The notes under the pieces were generated by a model. The model saw only the letters and a list, made by a program, of their open reading frames with translations. It did no database searches and was not told where the DNA came from. A program made the translations under genes and the position numbers. 64,000 nt of DNA from Acidobacteriota bacterium (GTDB lineage: Bacteria; Acidobacteriota; Thermoanaerobaculia; Gp7-AA8), in the NCBI GenBank assembly GCA_021781455.1, contig JAJXWV010000078.1, positions 3,991 to 67,990 of the forward strand, given 5' to 3'. Below, one piece after another: positions 46,318-63,128 of this stretch. How positions within the stretch are numbered: position 1 is the stretch's first letter; every line of letters begins with the position of its first letter.

Positions 46318-46911
46318 TCAAACGATGTACGGGATGAATCGCTTGCGGCTCTTCATGAACGCGGCGTAGGGCTCGCCGATCGCCTCGACCAGCGCGCGCT
46401 CCTCGACCGACACTCGATAGGAGTACACGGCGAAGGAACCAGCGATCAGGATCACTGCGCTGGCCCAGCTGCCGAGGGCGATGCCGATGCCGGTGAACAT
46501 CAGGATGCCGGCGGTGTACGAGGGATGGCGCACGAACCTGTATGCGCCGCGGTCGATGACCGGCTGATCGGCGCGAGCGCGGACATCCCCCGTGAAGTAC
46601 TCGCCCAGGATGCGGAAGCAGTGCCGGCGAAGAAGGCTTGCGGCGATCAGAAGCGCGACACCGGCGCTGAAGGCCGGGACCTGCGCAGCGGCGGGAAAAC
46701 GAAAGAGGCGGAGCGACGCCGCCGGAAAGGCGAGCAACATCCCCAGGAATTGCCCGATCATGATCACGCGGATGGATCCGGCGTCCTTCGAGTCGGGAGC
46801 GGCGGCTGAGCGCCGTCCCCGCTGGACGATCATGAATTCGACGGAGAACGCCCAGAACAGCACCAGCCAGAAAACGACTGCATAAGGCCAGACGAAGACC
46901 AGCGGTCGCAT
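46318..46911 (-). CDS. Isoprenylcysteine carboxyl methyltransferase (ICMT)/phospholipid methyltransferase-family membrane protein
   Basis: C-terminal signature YRFVRHPSYTAGILMFTGIGIALGSW…EERALVEAIGEPYAAFMKSRKRFIP typical of the ICMT/PEMT fold. 4-5 TM helices. Confidence 0.8.
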   Translation of the reverse strand: MRPLVFVWPYAVVFWLVLFWAFSVEFMIVQRGRRSAAAPDSKDAGSIRVIMIGQFLGMLLAFPAASLRLFRFPAAAQVPAFSAGVALLIAASLLRRHCFRILGEYFTGDVRARADQPVIDRGAYRFVRHPSYTAGILMFTGIGIALGSWASAVILIAGSFAVYSYRVSVEERALVEAIGEPYAAFMKSRKRFIPYIV

Positions 46912-52285: not shown

Positions 52286-53011
52286 CTAGGCAACGCGCTC
52301 CAGCAGCGTCGCCAGGTAGAAGGCCCGGCGGCGCTCCGCCGCGGGCTCGAGGCCGGGAGTGGCGCGAAAGATGTCGTGGATCCGCCGCGTCATCCGCGAC
52401 GGCGGATCGACTGCGAAGAAGAAGTGATCGACCACGAGCAGCAGCCCGCCCGGCTCCAGGATGCCGGCGATCCTGGAAGCCAGTGCGCCCACCACGCCAT
52501 CGTCGAGCGGCAACAGGTAGTAAAGGACGTCCGCCAGAACCACGAGGTCGAACCGCGAGCCTTCGGCCAGCGTGGTGATGTCCGCCTGGACGTACTCGAT
52601 GTTCGGCTGGCCCTGCGACAGCGATCGCGCCTGCGCCGCGGCCTCTGCCGAGAGGTCGATGCCGAGAACGTGATCGGCGTGGGGAGCGAGAAGGCGCGTG
52701 AAACCGCCCAGACCGCAGCCCACGTCGAGAGCACGCCTGTACGGCCGCTTCGGGAGCATGGACAGGAGCGCCTGGTATTTCCGGCGCTGGTATCGGAACT
52801 GCGGGGCCACGCTGGCGTAGGGATCGCTGCCGGCAGCGTAGAGCTGATCGAAAGCCGCAGCCGACGCTCCGTTCGACCGCAGCCTGGCCAGCGCGGCGTC
52901 GGTCCGCGCGCTTCGAATCCAGAAGGCGATGTCGCGCAGAGTCATGAAAAAGTCCCGCGGCTCTTCGCAAAGCGTCTGCCCGGGCACGGGATTCTTGGCG
53001 CTCCCCGACAT
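52286..53011 (-). CDS. Class I SAM-dependent methyltransferase (NodS-like)
   Basis: Motif I ALDVGCGLGGFTRLLA, motif II RFDLVVLADVLYY, motif III LLEPGGLLLV. Start chosen at MSGSAKNP to avoid overlap with the Kdo-transferase gene. Confidence 0.7.
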   Translation of the reverse strand: MSGSAKNPVPGQTLCEEPRDFFMTLRDIAFWIRSARTDAALARLRSNGASAAAFDQLYAAGSDPYASVAPQFRYQRRKYQALLSMLPKRPYRRALDVGCGLGGFTRLLAPHADHVLGIDLSAEAAAQARSLSQGQPNIEYVQADITTLAEGSRFDLVVLADVLYYLLPLDDGVVGALASRIAGILEPGGLLLVVDHFFFAVDPPSRMTRRIHDIFRATPGLEPAAERRRAFYLATLLERVA

Positions 53012-53034: not shown

Positions 53035-54267
53035 TCACGACTGCGGCCGGAATCGTGACGCTGCCAGCTCCTCGATCCGGGTGGCACATGCCGCCGCCGC
53101 GCCGCTGCGGGCGACGGCAAACGCTCGTGCGTTTCCGGCCAGCCGGTCACGCTCCGCGCCGTCCCGGAGAAGCTCCTCGATCGTCGCTGCGAGATCGCGG
53201 GCGGTCGTCATCCGGAGCGCACCGGCGCTCTGCATTCCCTGGGCGGTCTCGCGAACTCGATCGACGCACGGGCCGACGACGATCGCGCAGCCGGCGCGCG
53301 CCGGCTCGAACAGGTCGTGGCCACCGACGCCGGCGAAGGTGCCGCCGATGACAGCAATGTCCGCCTGCGCATAGATCGCGGAGAGCGCGCCCATGCGGTC
53401 GACCACCTCCACCCGCCCCGCCGGCCAGAGGGAAGCAACGGTCCGCCGGACGTCGCGCGCCCGGCGCGGATGCCGCGGCACCAGCACGATCTTCGGGTCC
53501 GACCCGGGGGAAAGAGCACGACAGGCCTCGATGACGATCCTCTCCTCGCCCGGATGAGTGCTGGCCGCAACCACCACCTTTCCGGCACGTGAGCCGCGAC
53601 TGGAGCGGTCGTGCGCGATCAGGCAGGCATCGGCTTTCAGACTGCCGGAGATCGTCACCCGTTCCGACGGCGCGCCGATCGCGAGATAGCGCGCCTTCTC
53701 TTCCTCATCGACGGCGAGGATCGCTCCGGCCGTCGCCAGGATGGGCGCGAAGAAGCGGCGGAACAGCCGGTACCACCGCGCGGCAGGCGGATCGATGCGA
53801 CCCCCGGCGACGATCAGCGGAATGCCGCGTCTCCGGCACGCCAGGAAGAGGTTCGGCCAGATCTCCGTCTCGATCACGACCACCGCGTCGGGTCTGATCG
53901 CTTCGAGCCATCGATCGACGCCGCCGCGGCGGTCCCAGGCCCAGGCCGTGATGCGCTCGACCTCAGGATGATGTTGATGGATCCGGAGCGCAGTCCGGCG
54001 CGCGTCCTCGTTGCCGGCGCTGATCGCGAACGACCAGCCGCGTGCCGCGAGCTCGTGCACGATCGCGGAGGCGGCATTCATTTCCCCCGCGGAAACGGCG
54101 TGCGCGAGGAGCCGCGGTCCTGACGGAGCCGGGCTCGGGTCGATGCGTCCCAATCTCTCGGCCAGCGTCCGCCACTTCGATGTCCCGAAGGCGATGCGCA
54201 CGATCTCGAGAGGAACGAGAGCGATCCACACCACGATCTCGATGGCGATCGAGTAGAAGAGGATCAT
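53035..54267 (-). CDS. waaA: 3-deoxy-D-manno-octulosonic acid (Kdo) transferase, GT30
   Basis: N-terminal TM anchor MILFYSIAIEIVVWIALVPL. GT30 N-terminal domain (…HAVSAGEMNAASAIVHEL…VVVIETEIWPNLF…) and C-terminal GT-B domain (…VDRMGALSAIYAQADIAVIGGTF..GGHDLFEPARAGCAIVVGP). Confidence 0.8.
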   Translation of the reverse strand: MILFYSIAIEIVVWIALVPLEIVRIAFGTSKWRTLAERLGRIDPSPAPSGPRLLAHAVSAGEMNAASAIVHELAARGWSFAISAGNEDARRTALRIHQHHPEVERITAWAWDRRGGVDRWLEAIRPDAVVVIETEIWPNLFLACRRRGIPLIVAGGRIDPPAARWYRLFRRFFAPILATAGAILAVDEEEKARYLAIGAPSERVTISGSLKADACLIAHDRSSRGSRAGKVVVAASTHPGEERIVIEACRALSPGSDPKIVLVPRHPRRARDVRRTVASLWPAGRVEVVDRMGALSAIYAQADIAVIGGTFAGVGGHDLFEPARAGCAIVVGPCVDRVRETAQGMQSAGALRMTTARDLAATIEELLRDGAERDRLAGNARAFAVARSGAAAACATRIEELAASRFRPQS

Positions 54268-54544
54268 GCCGAGGCAGCGGGAGGGCGCCAGGCGATGGCC
54301 ATCGTGGCGCGCTGGCGCATTGCAGACCGCAGCGACCGGCCGACCACGCCGCACTCACCGTTCAAGCGCATCGGTCGAATGGTACTGAATTCGCGCTCCG
54401 CTCGGGATCATCGAGTCGAACTTCGATGCCCGACGGTTTCACGGTCACTCTTCGCGCACAAGTCGGAAATGACGCATCGAGCATGATTGGGAAGGCTGCG
54501 GTATGCTGTCGAAAAATCGCAATCGGCCAACGAAGCGAGGTCCC

Positions 54545-55439
54545 GATGAAGATCACGAGGCTGTTGTCACTTGCCCTCTGTCTCGCCGCCGGCGTCATGG
54601 TCCCCTGCTCCTTCGGTCAAAGTCTGATCCCGGGCATGTTAGGCCCCTACAATGGAGCCACGGTAGACACCAACGGCGTTTCCACGGCGACGCCCGACGG
54701 TCCCTGTGCCGTTCCGTCGCGCAGCGGTACGAACCTCACGCTCTACACTCCCTGGAGCGTCGATCCGGTCAACGGCTATTTGTGCGGTCTCGACAGCGTC
54801 ACCGGGAAATACACGGCGATCTGCCGCACGACGCCCGGTGGGCTCTTCCAGATGATCGCCATCACCGGCTATTCCGCTTTTCGTCATGCTCCGGGCAAAG
54901 TCAGCACCTCCGCCGCGGGCTCCTTCCCCAGCACCTTCACGTACACGCAGAGCGGCGTCGGACCGCCGAAGAGCGGGACCGGCCAGCTCGTCGACCAGAA
55001 CGGCGACGGAATCTTCGACGGCATCACCCTGGCCGGACCGGGCCTGAACGTCACCCTGCCGTTCGTCTACGTCGACGTCAACGGCGACGGCTTTGCCGAC
55101 TTCATCAGTATCCCGTGGTCGCAGGCCGCGCTCGTCGGAGTGAACCCGAACAGCAGCGTTCTCACGCCAGGCGCGGGCGGTCCCAATCCACAGGTCTGGG
55201 TTCCGCTCGCCGACACGAACGGCGACGGGAAACCCGATTCGATCATGCTCGACCTCGACGGCGACGGGGTTCCGGACCCGGACGTGTTCTCGTCGCCCGC
55301 GCTCGGCCCGGTCTCCGCGCCGGCGACGCTGGCTCCGTCGACCCCGGTGCCGGCGTTCTCGGAATGGGGCATTCTCGCTGTCATTCTGGCGCTCGCGACG
55401 GTGGGGCTGTGGCAGGTGAAGGTACACAGTCACGTCTGA
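54545..55439 (+). CDS. Secreted Asp/Gly-rich (calcium-binding-like DxNGDG repeats) protein with C-terminal IPTL/PEP-CTERM-like sorting signal
   Basis: Signal peptide MKITRLLSLALCLAAGVMVPCSFGQ. Repeated DQNGDGIFDG / DVNGDGFADF / DTNGDGKPDS / DLDGDGVPDPD motifs. C-terminus PAFSEWGILAVILALATVGLWQVKVHSHV (motif + TM + basic tail). The ORF-track N-terminal extension is rejected. Confidence 0.6.
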
Positions 55440-55477
55440 ACGCCGCGGCGTCCGGCACGCTCACCACGGAAATCCCC

Positions 55478-55666
55478 ATGCGCAGGTGGCTCTCCACGAC
55501 GGCGATTCTGTTTGGCGGCCTGATGTTGACGACGGTCGTGATCCAGTTCGCCGCGATCGGCGTGCTGGACATCAGCTCCGGACGGCTCTTCGCCAGCTGC
55601 GGAGTGGCGGCCGCGCAGGCCATCGCCGTCGCGGCTCTTCTCAGGTACGCGGACGGCAGACAATGA
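55478..55666 (+). CDS. Small 2-TM membrane protein translationally coupled (ATGA overlap) to lpxB
   Basis: [62 protein letters not shown]. Its stop overlaps the lpxB ATG. Confidence 0.35.
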   Translation: MRRWLSTTAILFGGLMLTTVVIQFAAIGVLDISSGRLFASCGVAAAQAIAVAALLRYADGRQ

Positions 55667-56859
55667 ACGTGCTGGTGAGCGCCGGCGAAGTGTCGGGGGA
55701 CATCATCGGTGCCCTGATCGCGGAGGAGCTGCTGCGCCGCGATCCCTCCGTTCACGTGTGGGGACTGGGCGGCTCGCGAATGAGCGCCGCCGGAGTGACG
55801 GTCGCGGCGAGGACGAACCACCTCGGCCGCGTCGGCGTGAGCGAGAGCTTTTCCGCGATCCTGCCGCTGGTGCGCGCGTTCGCCGCGGTGCGCCGGGAGA
55901 TTCGCCGCGCCCGCCCCGATGTGGCAATCCTCGTCGCCAACGACCTCTTCAACGTCGTCCTGGGACGCTGGCTGCGCGCCCGGGGCATCCCCACGCTCGC
56001 GGTCTTCCCTCCGCAGGTCTGGATCTGGAAAGCGGCGGCTCGCGTCTTCAGCGGCAGCTGGGACGTCGTGGCGGCATCGTTCCCCGACGAACAACGCGTC
56101 TATTCACGCCACGTGCGAACGGTCTTCATCGGACATTACCTCGCCGACCGGCTGGGCCGCGCCACTCCGGCCGAGCGCGACGCGGCACGGGCCTCACTCG
56201 GCGCCGGCGGCGCGGTGGTCGGCCTCTTTCCGGGCAGCCGCGTTCACGAGCTGGAGATTCTCACGCCCCTGCTGCTCGACGCCGCAGCCCTGTTGTTGAA
56301 GAGCGATCCGTCGATGCGATTCGTCATGGCCATCGCGGAACGCGCCGATGAGCCGCGCATCGCCGCAGAGATCGCCAGGCGCGGGCTCACGGCAAACATC
56401 GCCCTCGTCCACGACAGCCACGCTGCCATCCGCGCCAGCGACCTTCTGCTGATGGCCTCCGGCACGGCCACGCTGGAGGCCTCGATCATCGGGACGCCGA
56501 TGATCGTGCTCTATCGCGTGCAGCGGATCACGATGTCGATCGTGCGCCTGGCCATCCGCCTGGGGTTGATGGATTCGGAGACGATATCGTTGCCGAACCT
56601 GATCCTGGAGGGGCCCGTGGTTCCCGAGGTCAGCCAGGAGCGGCTCTCGGCCGATCGCGTCGTGGAAGAGGCGAAACAGCTGCTCGCTGACCGCGAACGC
56701 CTGGCCGCGATGTCCGAACGGCTGTCCCGCGTCTCCGCGGCCGTGGACGGCCACGGCAGCGTGCAGCGCATCGCCGATCTCGTCGAAGAACTGGGATTGC
56801 GGCGCGCGCCGCTGTGTCAGGATCTTCCCGCGGTGGCTCTGGAAGGAGGCTCGGCGTGA
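55663..56859 (+). CDS. lpxB: Lipid-A-disaccharide synthase, GT19
   Basis: [13 protein letters not shown]…VWGLGG… N-terminal signature and GT19 architecture throughout. 398 aa. Confidence 0.85.
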
Positions 56860-57920
56860 CGGTGCAGACGCTCGGAGAGATCGCTCATGCGATCGGAGGA
56901 GTGGTGGACGGTGATCCTTCGCGGATCGTCGAACGGGTGCGCGGCATCGAGCAGGCCGGGAGGCGCGAGATCGCAGTCGTCTTCGACGCCCGGCATTTCC
57001 ACGCCATCGACAACTCGACCGCGGAGGCTCTGGTCATCCCCGCCGACTGCGCGACCACGCGTCGGAATGTCATTCGAACGTCCGACCCGCGCAAGAAACT
57101 GGCGCAGCTGCTGGCGCTCTTCAACGGCTCGGAGGACGTCGCGGCTGGCGTCAGCGCCCGTGCATTCGTGGCGCCGAGCGCAACGATCGGCCAGTCCGCA
57201 TCCATCGCGGCGGGTGCGTGGATCGGCGAGCACGTCGTCATCGGCGACAGAGTGCGCATTCACGCCAACGCCGTCGTCGGCGACTGCAGTGTGCTCGGCG
57301 ACGATTGCGTGATCCACCCGAACGTCACGATTTACGCGCAATCGCGCCTCGGCAAGCGCGTCGTCGTGCACGCCGGCACGGTGATCGGCAGCGACGGCTT
57401 CGGATTCGTGGAGGGCGAGAACGGCAGAGAGAAGATCCCTCAGGTGGGCTTCGTCGAGATCGGCGACGACGTCGAGATCGGTGCGAACTGCGCGATCGAC
57501 CGCGCCACCCTGGAGGTGACGCGCATCGGCGCGGGCAGCAAGATCGACAACCTCGTGCAGATCGGCCACAACAGCCAGATCGGTCCCGGATGCGTGCTCA
57601 TCGGCCAGGCCGGAGTGGCAGGAAGCGTCACTCTGGGCCCCGGCGTGATGATCGGCGGCCAGTCCGGCATTGCCGATCACGTCACCATCGGAGCGGGCGT
57701 GGTCATCGGGGCCAAGAGCGGTGTTCATTCCGATATCGCGGAAGGCGAGTGGCTGGGCAGCCCTGCCCTTCCCCGCGAGCGCGCCGGGCGGATGCTGGCC
57801 TTTCTCCCTCACCTTCCCGCATACCGGGAGCGAGTGCGCGATCTCGAAGCGCGCGTCCAGCAGCTGCAGAAGATGGTTGAGGGCCTTCTGGAAAGGAACG
57901 CCAAACGGACGGAGCCATGA
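56856..57920 (+). CDS. lpxD: UDP-3-O-acylglucosamine N-acyltransferase (left-handed beta-helix), with C-terminal coiled-coil extension
   Basis: GTG start overlapping the lpxB stop. N-terminal LpxD domain, then long hexapeptide-repeat region (…[32 protein letters not shown]…[37 protein letters not shown]…). Confidence 0.8.
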
Positions 57921-59017
57921 CTCGACGCATCGTCGTCACCGGAATGGGAGCGGTCACGCCGCACGGCGACCTCGCGCAATCGGTCGCCGCCGTCGCCGCC
58001 GGCCGGAGCGCCATCGGGCCGGTGCGGTCGTTCGAGACGAGCTCGTTCACGCAGACGCTCGCCGGCGAATGCCTGGTCTTCGATCCACGCCCCTGGTTTC
58101 GGCCGGCGAAGGCGCTGAAGCTGACCGACCGCAGAACGCGCTTCGCCGTCGCCGCTGCGGCCATGGCCGTCGCGGACGCAGGCCTCGATGCCGCGGCCGT
58201 CGAGCCCGCAGGCGTCGTGATCGGAACGAGCGGGTCCGATGTGCAGACCGAGGACGTCGGACGGGCTCTCGGCGGACCGGAGGAGGGCGACGCACGTGAC
58301 ATCGACTACTTCGCCGGGCGCGTCCTGCGCCGGCTCAATCCGCTCTGGCTCCTGGTGAATCTGGCCAACATGGCCAGCGCTCACGTGGCCATCCAGCTGG
58401 GAGCGCGCGGCCCGAACTCCACGATCACCACCGACTGGATCGCCGGACTGCAGGCCATCGGCGAAGCTGCCCGATGGATCGCCGGCGGCGAGTCCGATCT
58501 CGTGGTCGCCGGCGCGGCCGACAGCGGCGTGCTTCCGTTCGCGTTCGCCTCGTTCGAAGAGTCGGGATTTTTCGAAGGCGGCGAGCCGCGCTTCGTCCCC
58601 GGCGAGGGTGCCGCGGCGTTCGTCGTCGAGGAGCTCGGGCACGCCCGGGCGCGCGGCGGCCGGATCATCGCCGAGATCACCGGCTACGCGTCTGCCCAGG
58701 GCGATCTGGCCACCGCCGCGCGGCGTTCGCTCGATCAGTCCGGCACGGCCGGCGAGGACGTGGACGCGGTTTACGACGCGGCAGTTTTTACGCCGCGCCA
58801 TCGCCATCTCGACGACGCGGCCGCCGATGCGCTCTTCACCAACGCGCCCTCCCGATTCGAATGCAGCTCGCTCCTCGGCCACGCCCTCGCCGCATCGGCG
58901 CCCGTGGCCCTGGCCGTCGCTGCGGCCAGCAGGCCGCCCGGGACGATCCTGGTCAATTCCGTCGGTGCGTTCGGTCAGGCCGCGTCGATCGTGATCAAGG
59001 GAAGGGTGGCGGCATGA
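57917..59017 (+). CDS. Beta-ketoacyl synthase-like protein lacking the active-site Cys (chain-length-factor/KS-beta-like partner)
   Basis: Thiolase-fold KS homology ([15 protein letters not shown]…). The position of TACASG reads TTDWIAG, and the HGTGT and GHS His motifs are absent. Confidence 0.75.
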
Positions 59018-59019
59018 AG

Positions 59020-59412
59020 CCTCTGCCCGAGGATCTCGAGAAGAGCGTCATTGGCATCGTGGCGGAGGCGCTCAGCCTGGACCCTCGGGAAGTGAAACTG
59101 CATTCTTCCCTCATGGACGACCTCGGTGCGGAGTCCATCGACTTCATCGACATCGTCTTCCGCCTGGAGTCGGAGTACGACCTGATCATCCCGGAGCAGG
59201 AGCTGTGGGCCGGATCGATGGATATCGATGCAAACGACCCCGAGGCCATCGAGCGCGGCGTGGACGACCTGCGCCGGAAGATGCCCGATTTCGCCTGGGA
59301 GCGCTTTCCGGGCCCGGTCGGAAAGACCAACCTGCCGCGGCTCATCACCGTCAGCACGATCGTCGACTACCTGCGCAGGCGCGTCGACGCCGCCCCTGCC
59401 GGAGCGTCATGA
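59020..59412 (+). CDS. Acyl carrier protein (extended, 130 aa) with DLGAESIDFIDIV phosphopantetheine site
   Basis: ACP helix II motif LGAESID. Flanked by the KS-like and KS genes (3-bp gap, 4-bp overlap). Confidence 0.7.
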   Translation, partial: PLPEDLEKSVIGIVAEALSLDPREVKLHSSLMDDLGAESIDFIDIVFRLESEYDLIIPEQELWAGSMDIDANDPEAIERGVDDLRRKMPDFAWERFPGPVGKTNLPRLITVSTIVDYLRRRVDAAPAGAS

Positions 59413-60689
59413 CCCGGCGGGTGGTCGTGACGGGAATCGGCGTCATCGCGCCGAACGGACGCGACGTGAAGAGCTTCGCCAGCGCGCTCGCCGCAGGTCG
59501 CTCGGCAGTGCGCCCCATCCGCCGCTTCGCCACCAGCTCGTATCCGACGCGCATTGCCGCCGAGATCGACGATTTCGAATGGACCGAGCGCACCGAGCCG
59601 CCCGCCGGCTGGCGCACCTTCGACCGCATCACCCGCTTCGCCACCGCGGCGGCCGCCCAGGCCATCGCCGACGCACGGCTCGATCCGGCCGGCCTCGATC
59701 GCACGGGCGTCGTCATCGCTGCCGGCTTCGGCAGCTACGACCACGAGGAAGTCTTCACCTCGTGCGCCGCCGGGTTTGGTGGCGACGGAGAGTTCGACTG
59801 GACGGCCTTTCGCGAACAGTTCCGGCGCTCGGTCAAGCCGCGGCCTGCGGAGCGGAGGACGCCGGGCTCGGTGCCGGCCCTCGTCGCCAGCCACTTCGGA
59901 TTTCGCGGCCCGGTGATGGCGGTGATGACTGCCTGCGCTGCCGGGACGCAGGCGCTGGGCGACGGCGCTCGGTGGATCCGCTGCGGCGACGCCGACGTCG
60001 TGATCGCCGGCGGCGCCGATTCGGAGATCTATCCGATGGGGCTGGCCTCGTTCTGTCTGCTGCACGCGCTCTCGACGCGCAACGATTGCCCGGAACGCGC
60101 CAGCCGTCCATTCAGCGCGACGCGCGACGGCTTCGTCCTCGGCGAGGGCAGCGGCGTGCTCGTGCTCGAGGAGCTGGAGCACGCACGCGGGCGCGGCGCG
60201 GAGATTTACGCGGAGCTTCTCGGCTTCGGCTCGGCCTGCGATTCGTTCCGCGTCACCGATCCGCATCCGGACGGGATCGGTGCGGCCCTGGCCATGAAGC
60301 GTGCCCTCCACCAGGCCGGGCTGAGCACCGCCGATGTCGACTACGTCAACGCCCACGGAACCTCGACGCCGCTCAACGACCGCATCGAGTCGCGCGCAAT
60401 CCGCCAGCTGTTCGGCGACCACGCTTCCGGTCTGGCCGTCAGCTCGACGAAGTCGATGATCGGCCATCTCACCGTGGCCGCCGGAGCGGTGGAAGCGATC
60501 GCCACGATCATGGCCATCCGCGAGAACATCGCGCATCCGACGATCAACCTCGAGGATCCTGATCCGGAGTGCGATCTCGATTTCGTGCCCAATCGGGCCA
60601 GGACCATGACCATCGACGTGGCCCTTTCGAATTCGTTTGCGTTCGGAGGACAGTGCGCGAGCATCGCCATCGGGAGGTACGCGCCGTGA
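59409..60689 (+). CDS. Beta-ketoacyl-ACP synthase (FabF/KAS II-like, catalytically complete)
   Basis: Active-site Cys in MTACAAGTQA. His in NAHGTSTPLND and SSTKSMIGHLTVAAG. C-terminal NSFAFGGQCASIAIG. Confidence 0.85.
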   Translation: MTRRVVVTGIGVIAPNGRDVKSFASALAAGRSAVRPIRRFATSSYPTRIAAEIDDFEWTERTEPPAGWRTFDRITRFATAAAAQAIADARLDPAGLDRTGVVIAAGFGSYDHEEVFTSCAAGFGGDGEFDWTAFREQFRRSVKPRPAERRTPGSVPALVASHFGFRGPVMAVMTACAAGTQALGDGARWIRCGDADVVIAGGADSEIYPMGLASFCLLHALSTRNDCPERASRPFSATRDGFVLGEGSGVLVLEELEHARGRGAEIYAELLGFGSACDSFRVTDPHPDGIGAALAMKRALHQAGLSTADVDYVNAHGTSTPLNDRIESRAIRQLFGDHASGLAVSSTKSMIGHLTVAAGAVEAIATIMAIRENIAHPTINLEDPDPECDLDFVPNRARTMTIDVALSNSFAFGGQCASIAIGRYAP

Positions 60690-61378
60690 TGCGTCTGCAC
60701 TCCGCGGTCCGGCCGTTCGCGCTCGCCGCCGGACGCCTGTTTGCACTCTGGCTGCGATCGCTGCGCGTGCGCATGCAGGTGCACGGAAGCTGGATCGATC
60801 GTGCGGACTTCGTCGCCGGCAACGGCCTCTTCGCGTTCAGCGAGCGCGACCTCCTCGCGGTGGCCGCGGCCGCGGAAGGACGCCATCTCCTGGTTCTCGT
60901 CGACGCCAGCGCAGATGGCGACTGGGCCGTCGCAATCGCGTCCGCGCTGGGATGCCGGTTCGTGCGCGGCTCGAGCCTTCATCAGGGCCTCGGCGCGCTC
61001 CGCGATCTGATCCACGCGCTCGAAGGGAACGATCGCCCGGCGGCGTTCGTGGTGGACGGGCCGGTCGGTCCGGCCGGTGAAGCGAAGCCCGGCATCGCCG
61101 CATGCGCCGCACTGACCGGCAGGCCGATCGTGCCGGTGGCCGCGGCCGCACGGTGGCGGATCGCCTTTCCGCGAAGCTGGGCCGGTCATTATCTTCCGCT
61201 GCCGTGGTCGCGGGTGGCGATCGTCGTCGGCGAGCCGCTCGTGGTTCGCCGCGGTGCCTCGCGAGAGGAGATCGATGCCATGGCGCGGGCGATCACGATC
61301 GCGCTCGAGGACCTGCGCGCCAAGGCCCTGGCCGCACTCGCCGCTCCCGCGATGAGGATGGAGTCGACAGCCGCGTGA
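60689..61378 (+). CDS. DUF374-family protein (lysophospholipid acyltransferase-like; typically linked to Kdo transferase/lipid A genes)
   Basis: …LLVLVDASADGDWAVAIASALGCRFVRGSS…FVVDGPVGPAGEAKPGIAACAALTGRPIVPV matches the DUF374 consensus (…GSSSRGG…PDGPRGP…G…LA..sG.PI.P). Confidence 0.65.
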   Translation: MRLHSAVRPFALAAGRLFALWLRSLRVRMQVHGSWIDRADFVAGNGLFAFSERDLLAVAAAAEGRHLLVLVDASADGDWAVAIASALGCRFVRGSSLHQGLGALRDLIHALEGNDRPAAFVVDGPVGPAGEAKPGIAACAALTGRPIVPVAAAARWRIAFPRSWAGHYLPLPWSRVAIVVGEPLVVRRGASREEIDAMARAITIALEDLRAKALAALAAPAMRMESTAA

Positions 61379-62130
61379 AGCGATTCTTCCTGCTCTGGCT
61401 GATGCTCCTGGCGATCGAGACGGCGGCCGCGGTCGCGATCTCGGTCCTCATCCTCCACTCGGTGGACGCGCGGCTCGAGCCCTTCCTGACCGGACTGATT
61501 GCACCCGCGGTCCAGGCCGCTCTGCTCCTCTGGTTCTTCCCGCGTCTGCGTGACCGCGGGTTCGTGACGCCGGGTGAGGCGATCCGCTCCCGGCCGGTTG
61601 CCACGGCGGCGGCGGTCCTCCTCGGTGCGGGTGCGGTGCTGACGACGCTCGTGGTCGTGCGAGTCGCGCCGGCACGACTTTTCGACCTCGCCCGTGGCGC
61701 TGCCGCAGTGGCGGGCGCCGCGGCGTTCTTCATCGCCGGATGGCGGCGCACTCGCGGCGCCTTCTCTGCAGGTGCGATGCTCGTGATCATCGCCATCGCT
61801 ACCGGTCGCGCGGAAGCGATCTCCTCGCACGTTCTTCCTTCGCAGCCGATGGGCACCCGCTGGCTGGCCTTCGGTCTGATCTCGGCAGTGGTGGTGCTCG
61901 TGCTTCTGTTCCATGCCGTCACCGCGCTGCGCGGCTCATCGCCGCACGCCGCAACGTGGCTGGAGTGGTCGCTGGCTCCGGCGATGCTCGCCGCCCTGAT
62001 CATCCTGGCGAATTTCTACTCGCGGCCGTTGTTGACGCCCGCTTCGTCTCTGGCGGCAAACGCGTGCGGACTGGCCGCCGCGGGCCTGGCATTTCTCGCC
62101 TCGATCGCCTCGCTGCAGCGGAGCTCGTGA
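61375..62130 (+). CDS. Polytopic membrane protein of unknown function inside the lipid A cluster
   Basis: GTG start overlapping the upstream stop. ~7 hydrophobic helices. No motif recognised. Confidence 0.45.
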   Translation: MKRFFLLWLMLLAIETAAAVAISVLILHSVDARLEPFLTGLIAPAVQAALLLWFFPRLRDRGFVTPGEAIRSRPVATAAAVLLGAGAVLTTLVVVRVAPARLFDLARGAAAVAGAAAFFIAGWRRTRGAFSAGAMLVIIAIATGRAEAISSHVLPSQPMGTRWLAFGLISAVVVLVLLFHAVTALRGSSPHAATWLEWSLAPAMLAALIILANFYSRPLLTPASSLAANACGLAAAGLAFLASIASLQRSS

Positions 62131-63128
62131 TGGCCAGACGGCTGCTCGACCTCGTCATTTCGGTCCGCGACCTGTTGGCGGCGGTCGTGGTCGCGATCGT
62201 TCTCGCTCCGATCTGGTTCCTTCCCTGGCGGCCGGCGTGCTGGCTGGCGCGCCGCTATGGGTTCATCGCCTTCGTGTTCTGGGGCGAAGAAAGGCGCGCC
62301 GGCATGATCAACCTGCGCCGCTCGTACGGCGTCTCGATGTCGCGACACGAGGCCAGGCGCTCGATCGCAATCGTGTTCTCGAATCTCGCCCGGAGCATCG
62401 CCGAGGCCATGCAGTTCGTGCACAGGTTCGGCCGCGGCGAAGAATGGCGGACGATCTACCGCCTCGAGGATCCTGACCTCGCGCAGCGCATCCTCGACGA
62501 TCCACGTCCGAAGATCTTTGCCACCGCCCACCTCGGATCGTGGGAAGTGACCACGCTGATTCTGCAGCGCGCGCTGGGCTCGGGAGCCGGTATCGCACGA
62601 CGCATCGACAACCGCTGGCTCGACCGGCTGGTCAAGGCGGTGCGCCTCGATGACCCCTCGCAGTGGATCGAGAAGCGAGGAGGAGCGGCCGAGGCGCTGC
62701 GCCGGCTGCGCAATGGCCAGAGCGTGGTCATGCTCGTCGACGAGAACGGCGGATGGCGCGGACCGTTCGTCGAATTCTTCGGCCGCCCTGCCTCCACCCG
62801 GAAAACGCCGGCGCTGCTGTCGCTCCTCACCGGCGCGCCGATCGTCGTCGGTGCCGCCATCCGCGACGAGAGCGCGCCACAGCCTGCATTCATCTTCCGG
62901 CTCGCCATGATCGATGCAGCGGCCGAAGATCTGACGCAGCCCGACTCGCTCATCCCGCTCACGGCCAGGATTCAGGCCATCCTCGAAGCGTGGATTCGGG
63001 AGACGCCGCGTCAGTGGCGATGGATCCACTGGAGGTGGCGAACCCGGAGCGACGGCAGCGCGGAACGCTACACGCGCCGCGATCTGGACGAAGCGTTCGC
63101 TTCTCCCGCGCCCCCGCCGTCACTCTGA
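62130..63128 (+). CDS. Lipid A biosynthesis late acyltransferase (LpxL/HtrB/LpxXL family, LPLAT superfamily)
   Basis: N-terminal TM helix. HLGSWE is the Hx4D/E acyltransferase catalytic motif. Family-typical C-terminal W-rich region (…RQWRWIHWRWR…). Confidence 0.75.
   Translation: MARRLLDLVISVRDLLAAVVVAIVLAPIWFLPWRPACWLARRYGFIAFVFWGEERRAGMINLRRSYGVSMSRHEARRSIAIVFSNLARSIAEAMQFVHRFGRGEEWRTIYRLEDPDLAQRILDDPRPKIFATAHLGSWEVTTLILQRALGSGAGIARRIDNRWLDRLVKAVRLDDPSQWIEKRGGAAEALRRLRNGQSVVMLVDENGGWRGPFVEFFGRPASTRKTPALLSLLTGAPIVVGAAIRDESAPQPAFIFRLAMIDAAAEDLTQPDSLIPLTARIQAILEAWIRETPRQWRWIHWRWRTRSDGSAERYTRRDLDEAFASPAPPPSL

Follow-up and report, generated by a model that had tools for sequence, protein, structure and literature searches.

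To our knowledge, only one bacterial route to a private lipid A fatty acid is known, the AcpXL/LpxXL system of the Rhizobiales and a few pathogens. In rhizobia its product, attached to lipid A, is a C26-C34 (omega-1)-hydroxy fatty acid, which makes the outer membrane stiffer and has a part in tolerating stress and in dealings with the host. The rhizobial cluster for this fatty acid, which is of the very-long-chain type (VLCFA), has the order acpXL-fabZXL-fabF2XL-fabF1XL-(adhA2XL)-lpxXL and is also found in Brucella, Agrobacterium, Bradyrhizobium, and Legionella (PMC5613085, PMC11901934), and every known producer of VLCFA-lipid A has the five-gene VLCFA set (PMC5613085). Here we describe a lipid A operon containing a ketosynthase pair and a dedicated acyl carrier protein (ACP) in a 64,000-nucleotide (nt) stretch, referred to as the window, from an Acidobacteriota bacterium of soil or sediment (contig JAJXWV010000078.1, positions 3,991 to 67,990, forward strand). 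The best explanation of the operon is that it serves lipid A assembly in a Thermoanaerobaculia-type acidobacterium and has a private fatty acid elongation module built into it. Most likely it builds a special fatty acid for lipid A and is a counterpart, not described before, of the rhizobial very-long-chain system, from which it would have evolved independently. Literature searches turned up no account of paired ketosynthases within an lpx operon.

A ketosynthase pair and its carrier protein in a lipid A operon

Nine genes on the plus strand, spanning window positions 55478 to 63128, make up a single chain:

55478-55666, plus strand: 62-aa two-span membrane protein (from sequence and hydropathy)
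55663-56859, plus strand: lpxB, lipid A disaccharide synthase (PF02684, 1.5e-63; TIGR00215, 202.9 bits, cut-off 190.25)
56856-57920, plus strand: lpxD, UDP-3-O-acylglucosamine N-acyltransferase (NF002060, 345.8 bits, cut-off 207; TIGR01853, 304 bits, cut-off 242.5)
57917-59017, plus strand: ketosynthase-like protein, KSL (PF00109 only, 9e-27)
59014-59412, plus strand: dedicated ACP, 132 aa (PF00550)
59409-60689, plus strand: FabF-type ketosynthase, KAS (PF00109 and PF02801; NF005589, 472 bits, cut-off 387)
60689-61378, plus strand: DUF374/LpxJ-like protein of a divergent type, here called type B (PF04028, 2.4e-13)
61375-62130, plus strand: 251-aa polytopic membrane protein with about six hydrophobic spans, assigned to no family
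62130-63128, plus strand: LpxL-family late acyltransferase (PF03279, 1e-32)

Genes were identified by Pfam and NCBIfam scans and hydrophobic spans by hydropathy, and an independent second set of gene calls for the source contig, a 72.7-kb metagenome contig from ENA, matches the gene coordinates, including the start of lpxD. The junctions, read in the DNA, are ATGA, GTGA, or 1-nt overlaps throughout, from the gene for the 62-aa protein (ATGA with lpxB) through lpxB (GTGA with lpxD) to the LpxL-family gene. The nine genes are thus one translationally coupled chain and, overlapping stop to start, are therefore expressed together. A promoter and terminator scan of this 67% G+C DNA was uninformative. 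An earlier, sequence-only reading of the locus had listed the same genes, all of which were recovered at essentially the same positions with strong family matches, and had rightly coupled a small two-span protein to lpxB. It had also grouped waaA with lpxB and lpxD ahead of the coupled ketosynthase and ACP genes; waaA lies on the minus strand, divergent from the operon. Related loci were collected with a one-genome-per-species scan that gave 13 loci, a lower bound since the search patterns were narrow, and three metagenome-contig contexts (L016-18) were added to these.

All catalytic residues of a working ketosynthase are present in KAS, as previously proposed: the motifs TACAA, NAHGT, STKSM, IGHLT, and FAFGG give the complete Cys/His/Lys/His set and the gatekeeper Phe. 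Its best match in the PDB is Thermus thermophilus FabF, aligned end to end at 4.5e-118, compared with 2e-71 for the aryl-polyene ketosynthase ApeO (6smo). KAS passes the KAS II subfamily model NF005589 and reaches 475 bits with the strict FabF equivalog TIGR03150, slightly below the cut-off of 493.75.

KSL is 37% identical to KAS, and its alignment to FabF places Trp174 at the Cys position (TTDWIAG) and Ala at the first His, with the Lys lost. The second His is kept, LLGHAL aligning with SMIGHL of T. thermophilus FabF, and is retained in about two-thirds of the family. The earlier description of KSL, in which the Cys and both His residues were missing, therefore stands for the Cys and the first His only. 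A database search with KSL gave 1,776 matches at E ≤ 1e-5, and identity among the best 120 of these is 43 to 100%; the Cys column is Trp in 33 of 37 family members and Ala or Gly in the remainder, and the family has an invariant motif block (37 protein letters, not shown). An AlphaFold (AF2) model of KSL has the full thiolase fold with a predicted local distance difference test score (pLDDT) of 89, and its best PDB neighbors in Foldseek are FabF enzymes (TM-score, 0.86). Across 16 loci, every KAS has the full catalytic set, and every KSL is without the Cys, the first His, and the Lys.

Co-occurrence of KAS and KSL is strict and the neighbor-joining trees of the two families are congruent, which is the sequence-level basis for predicting a heterodimer. 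Both proteins also carry a 13- to 14-residue insertion in the cap region that is absent from Escherichia coli FabF and from a third ketosynthase encoded nearby in some loci; the catalytic positions of the E. coli sequence agree with the T. thermophilus FabF alignments. Because of the residue losses, the congruent trees, and the shared cap insertion, we read KSL as an old, co-evolving, and catalytically dead paralog of its own KAS, derived from FabF. We considered KSL as the product of a decaying pseudogene and rejected this on the basis of family conservation and the confident full-length fold.

An active ketosynthase (KS) gene beside a homolog that lacks the Cys is likewise found in the KS/chain-length factor (CLF) pairs of type II polyketide synthases (PKS; actinorhodin, 1TQY; ishigamide, 6KXD) and in ApeO/ApeC (6SMO). 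In KS/CLF heterodimers, pairing with the partner should mold the acyl tunnel where the two subunits meet, and the same would be expected of KAS and KSL. The likeness of KSL to a CLF noted in the earlier reading is sound as a functional comparison between Cys-less partners, but it does not extend to descent. Similarity of KSL falls from FabF (2e-33) to the act CLF (1e-18) and on to the aryl-polyene proteins ApeC and ApeO (about 1e-12; ApeC, 5e-12). Type II PKS CLFs have Gln at the Cys position whereas KSL has Trp, and the derived cap insertion that KSL shares with its own KAS is unlike what descent from the CLF clade would give. As KSL is closest to FabF and shares this insertion with KAS, the Cys-less partner therefore appears to have arisen independently of CLF. 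An aryl-polyene or type II PKS origin of the ketosynthases, which had been named as the outcome that would speak against a lipid A role, was rejected by the similarity ranking and by Foldseek, in which FabF comes first; both proteins are closest to FabF.

The ACP encoded between the two ketosynthases is 132 aa long, not 130 aa as first read, and has an intact phosphopantetheine motif (DLGAESID). Between helices III and IV it carries an insertion of about 49 residues (LW.GS...P.F.W.RFP...DLPRLITV), and motif and insertion are both conserved in 15 of 15 loci, as they are in an alignment of 49 homologs from the database. At least 629 proteins belong to the family; the lengths of the 120 listed all fall between 119 and 152 aa. 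An AF2 model (pLDDT, 87) shows a four-helix core with extra helices at residues 76 to 89 and 104 to 110. A Foldseek search of this model against the PDB matched the core alone and returned nothing resembling the insertion. The ACP matches housekeeping ACPs (2e-10, 43.8 bits) better than the specialized ACP AcpXL of Rhodopseudomonas palustris (2kw2; 5e-5, 26.5 bits), which ranks 44th in the Foldseek search, and it scores 33.5 bits against a cut-off of 83 with NF005079, a model that corresponds to AcpXL only by assumption. With its length and conserved insertion the ACP is of a non-housekeeping type, and by these comparisons it is no ortholog of AcpXL.

In the LpxL-family protein, a hydrophobic span at residues 8 to 26 provides an N-terminal anchor, and the HX4E motif is intact and conserved as HLGSWE in all homologs. 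It shares the PF03279 domain, the membrane anchor, and the catalytic motif with LpxL, LpxM, and LpxXL, yet it falls below every NCBIfam cut-off for proteins of the LpxL/LpxXL type (best, 97.5 versus 248 bits), and unlike those enzymes it is paired with a family-less polytopic membrane protein. This 251-aa protein has no match in Pfam or NCBIfam; an exhaustive search of 1.84 billion representatives yielded 18 relatives and a word-indexed search yielded five close homologs, and the protein evolves fast. In the window its gene adjoins the LpxL-family gene, as do positional homologs in L001, L007, L008, L010, and L016-18.

DUF374 corresponds to the LpxJ family of 3'-secondary lipid A acyltransferases, described from Helicobacter, Campylobacter, Wolinella, and Rickettsia, and the residues essential in Rickettsia typhi LpxJ are Trp60, His61 (the catalytic base), Asp86, Asp132, Trp172, and Asp173 (PMC6148475). 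The earlier reading had found the DUF374 protein of the window, but it recognized neither this known function nor that the copy is degenerate. The PF04028 match is clear (49.9 bits versus a gathering score of 26.8). Relative to LpxJ, SERD replaces FWHD and SWA replaces SWD, so that Glu, Arg, and Ala stand at the positions of Trp60, His61, and Asp173, while ADGD, VVDGPVGP, and SW keep the counterparts of Asp86, Asp132, and Trp172; this mapping was made through the canonical copies in L011-13 and not by direct alignment to R. typhi LpxJ. With these three counterparts replaced, the window protein therefore departs from LpxJ in a feature that defines the family, and whether it is active is doubtful. 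The type B pattern, (S/C)E(R/G)D and SW(A/S) with DG(D/E) and DGPxGP kept, occurs in the window and seven other loci. Type B proteins thus resemble LpxJ in the PF04028 domain, the DG(D/E) and DGPxGP blocks, the block 4 Trp, and the position among lipid A genes, and differ in having Glu, Arg or Gly, and Ser or Ala where LpxJ has the essential Trp60, His61, and Asp173. The canonical form (FWHD ... DGPxGP ... SWD) is found in L011-13, which are without the membrane protein. No second, canonical DUF374 copy was found elsewhere in the window.

Conservation in Acidobacteriota and comparison with the acpXL cluster

All 13 loci from the scan belong to Acidobacteriota, in Thermoanaerobaculia, Solibacteraceae, and unclassified lineages. 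KSL and KAS genes are adjacent in every locus that is long enough, with the ACP gene between them except in L006 and L007, and the three genes are a conserved Acidobacteriota unit. In L007 the ACP gene is directly downstream of LpxL-family and reductase genes, away from the two ketosynthase genes. Gene order and orientation around the trio vary between loci, and whole blocks are rearranged in L011-13. Nevertheless, waaA, lpxB, lpxD, DUF374, or LpxL-family genes lie within a few genes of the trio in 12 of 15 informative loci, and waaA homologs adjoin it in L006-8, L011-13, and L018.

Ten loci (L007-L013 and L016-18) contain a gene for a hotdog dehydratase that resembles FabZ and has its DHFPG...E motif intact. 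A short-chain dehydrogenase/reductase is encoded in at least six loci, and the model that fits it best by far is that of FabL, an enoyl-ACP reductase (260 bits; runner-up, 169). The two genes point to fully reduced chains in these relatives. The window and its nearest relatives, L001-L004, have neither the dehydratase nor the reductase gene.

An MsbA-like ABC transporter and a secreted FG-GAP-like protein recur in related loci. Following the MsbA-like gene in the extended clusters is a gene for a conserved 150- to 167-aa protein that matches no family (L011, 4699-5097; L012, 5526-5933; L013, 4738-5163; L016, 2834-3286; L018, 2810-3313). The third ketosynthase mentioned above (SACAT/NAHAT/GGHAL; about 38% identical to KAS; no cap insertion) is encoded in L011 (1502-2728) and L012 (2375-3595), about 5 kb upstream of the trio and adjoining the MsbA-like gene.

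The functional inventory of this acidobacterial cluster is that of the rhizobial acpXL cluster: a dedicated ACP, two FabF-type genes, an LpxL-family transferase with an extra oxidoreductase beside it, and a FabZ-type dehydratase, the last only in the relatives of the window. To this extent the acidobacterial locus mirrors the acpXL-fabF2XL-fabF1XL-lpxXL arrangement, as the sequence-only reading had suggested; tests of orthology, however, failed for the comparison of the ACP with 2kw2 and at the NCBIfam cut-offs. The two FabF-type genes score 344 bits with NF005076 (cut-off 629) and 39.7 bits with NF005084 (cut-off 320), these models being mapped to FabF1XL and FabF2XL by matching lengths only. 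Further differences set the systems apart. The acidobacterial cluster is embedded in lpxB-lpxD, whereas the rhizobial cluster stands alone, and it has two additional genes, for the degenerate type B LpxJ-like protein and the membrane protein. Its relatives have a FabL-like enoyl reductase where the rhizobial cluster has a gene of the zinc-dependent alcohol dehydrogenase type, and its ACP has a 49-residue insertion that is unmatched in the AcpXL structure. The FabZ-type dehydratase, part of the rhizobial cluster, is missing from the window. Searching a plasmid collection with KSL and the LpxL-family protein gave matches in Bradyrhizobium and Hyphomicrobiales, and neither of those inspected was an acpXL cluster. 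On these sequence comparisons, the acidobacterial cluster is best regarded as analogous, not orthologous, to acpXL/lpxXL.

Proposed function and competing explanations

We propose, with a probability of roughly 0.6, that the private elongation module makes a special acyl-ACP and that the co-encoded late acyltransferase puts this chain on lipid A. KAS and its dead paralog KSL would act as a KS/CLF-like heterodimer that condenses malonyl units onto a chain held on the 132-aa ACP. Reduction and dehydration would be carried out by housekeeping enzymes of the FabG/FabZ/FabI type in this organism and by cluster-encoded FabZ-like and FabL-like enzymes in most relatives. The LpxL-family enzyme, probably together with the membrane protein and the degenerate LpxJ-like protein, would then use the finished, saturated, nonstandard acyl-ACP and add the chain as a secondary acyl group on 3-deoxy-D-manno-oct-2-ulosonic acid (Kdo)2-lipid IVA. 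A dedicated acyl-chain module tied to late acylation of lipid A was also the core of the sequence-only reading, and the conserved trio, its linkage to lipid A genes, and the FabZ- and FabL-like additions in relatives support it. That the chain is very long is a more doubtful matter: a long or very long chain is plausible, and a very long one is in our view less likely than not; the cap insertion of the ketosynthases and the additional helices of the ACP would fit a larger acyl cavity and are no proof of a very long chain.

Several observations weigh against this proposal. The predicted heterodimer and the transfer from the ACP to the LpxL-family enzyme are both read from gene neighborhood, and the window DUF374 protein is without counterparts of residues that are essential in LpxJ. 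No homolog of the FabZ-type dehydratase was found in the 64-kb window or the contig tail, and the window has no reductase gene. The FabZ-like and FabL-like proteins of the relatives are both below their equivalog cut-offs, and their genes may be housekeeping ones that just happen to be located in the lpx region, where fabZ is found in many bacteria. In L002-L004, which form one Thermoanaerobaculia subclade, the trio lies away from all lipid A genes, among unrelated genes that include one for a DNA ligase, and is bordered on one side by an aminoglycoside-acetyltransferase-like gene and on the other by a PAS kinase/sigma-54 regulator pair (for example, L004, 8001-10784); linkage to lipid A genes is therefore frequent but not obligatory. 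A literature search found no paper on acidobacterial lipid A or on the lipids of the organisms that carry the cluster.

Of the alternatives, the one that survives best is that the module supplies primary 3-hydroxy or 3-oxo acyl chains on its special ACP to LpxD and not to the late acyltransferase, which we nonetheless hold to be unlikely. It would account for the overlap of the lpxD stop with the KSL start and for the position of lpxD directly before KSL in L001, L008, L010, L016, and L018, and a cluster such as that of the window, with neither dehydratase nor enoyl reductase, would give a 3-oxo or 3-hydroxy product by default. The dehydratase and enoyl reductase of most relatives, however, argue for fully reduced chains, and the arrangement with lpxD is not general: L017 has no lpxD between lpxB and KSL, and in L007 and L011-13 lpxD is kilobases off while the LpxL-family gene is close. 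The ACP gene of L007 directly follows the LpxL-family and reductase genes, and LpxD of the window passes the standard equivalog thresholds.

It is quite improbable, in our judgment, that the trio makes a chain for some other envelope lipid (an amino acid lipid, a pigment or aryl-polyene-like compound, or a membrane-spanning lipid), is merely co-located or co-regulated with the lipid A genes, and has its chain attached elsewhere by acyltransferases of the lysophospholipid acyltransferase (LPLAT) type. Acidobacteria are known for unusual membrane-spanning lipids, the trio of L002-L004 stands alone, and the DUF374 copy in the window is atypical. Members of the superfamily of PF03279 and DUF374 also act on acceptors other than lipid A, as the comparison with PatA illustrates (PMC6148475). 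Yet the link to lpxB, lpxD, and waaA is seen again and again in different classes even though the loci are rearranged, and both ketosynthases are of the FabF type, with ApeO/ApeC and PKS ketosynthases matching far more weakly. Genes typical of such pathways (starter-unit, adenylation, cyclase, thioesterase, or glycosyltransferase) are missing from the loci, and the FabL-like reductase argues against polyenes.

Least probable of all, and very unlikely, is that these are housekeeping fatty acid genes that happen to lie in the lpx region, with KAS as the general FabF and KSL as a roleless, decaying duplicate: the near-threshold FabF equivalog score of KAS, its pass with the KAS II model, and the habit of fabZ noted above favor this, but KSL forms a large conserved family with an invariant motif block, a confident full-length fold, and signs of co-evolution with KAS, the ACP with its conserved insertion is clearly of a non-housekeeping type, and L011-13 have further ketosynthases nearby.

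If lipid A acylation by a private module is correct, a second, independent system would exist in a dominant and poorly cultured soil phylum, and the private-fatty-acid strategy would be a general one. It would predict an uncharacterized lipid A chemotype in Acidobacteriota, with a bearing on soil 3-hydroxy fatty acid and membrane lipid proxies, and would be relevant to how acidobacteria survive drying and acidity. The locus would also bring three new kinds of protein: a pseudo-ketosynthase partner plugged by Trp, an ACP into which a further subdomain is built, and a protein that resembles LpxJ but has no counterpart of its catalytic His. Speculatively, and with less confidence than we have in the proposal itself, Acidobacteriota may decorate lipid A with an unusual chain, perhaps very long or not standard for fatty acid synthase, through an independently evolved pathway. 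This pathway would combine a Trp-plugged FabF/pseudo-FabF heterodimer, an ACP whose additional helical subdomain would house or display the chain, and machinery for transfer made up of the LpxL-family enzyme, the lineage-specific polytopic membrane protein, and the catalytically remodeled LpxJ-like protein.

Genes flanking the operon

Upstream of the nine-gene chain lie two divergent genes, the methyltransferase gene 23 nt downstream of waaA, and a gene for a secreted protein:

52286-53011, minus strand: class I S-adenosylmethionine (SAM)-dependent methyltransferase, NodS-like (Methyltransf_11/25, about 2e-16; NodS, 3e-14)
53035-54267, minus strand: waaA, Kdo transferase (PF04413, 1e-38; NF004388, 202 bits, below the equivalog cut-off)
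54546-55439, plus strand: secreted 297-aa protein (DxDxDG-type repeats, C-terminal hydrophobic sorting tail)

The in-frame start of the secreted protein is at 54546, one position after the start first proposed. A signal-like span lies at the N terminus of the protein and a further span at its C terminus, with a tail resembling IPTL/PEP-CTERM, and the protein gives only weak matches to FG-GAP_3 (7.8e-5) and IPTL-CTERM (0.043). Its homologs flank the cluster in seven loci (L001, L007, L008, L010, L011, L016, and L018). Genes of 58 to 68 aa occupy the position of the 62-aa protein in L016-18, and this two-span protein could be an unrecognized partner of LpxB.

No homolog of the NodS-like methyltransferase was found in any related locus, and the gene therefore appears to be a lineage-specific addition whose membership in the lipid A system is uncertain. 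A second methyltransferase, a 197-aa membrane protein of the ICMT/PEMT family, is encoded at window positions 46318-46911 on the minus strand, about 6 kb from the lipid A block, with an RND efflux operon on one side and the gene for a PAS histidine kinase on the other. The lipid A 1-phosphate methyltransferase LmtA of Leptospira is ICMT-like, and the protein from the window could be a lipid A modifier. Beyond the window end by about 1 kb, the source contig encodes a PMT_2 (GT39, ArnT-like) membrane glycosyltransferase after a DEAD-box helicase (L014, 17111-18310). A PMT/PMT_2 gene flanks the cluster in L016 as well, and these proteins may act in lipid A or core glycosylation.

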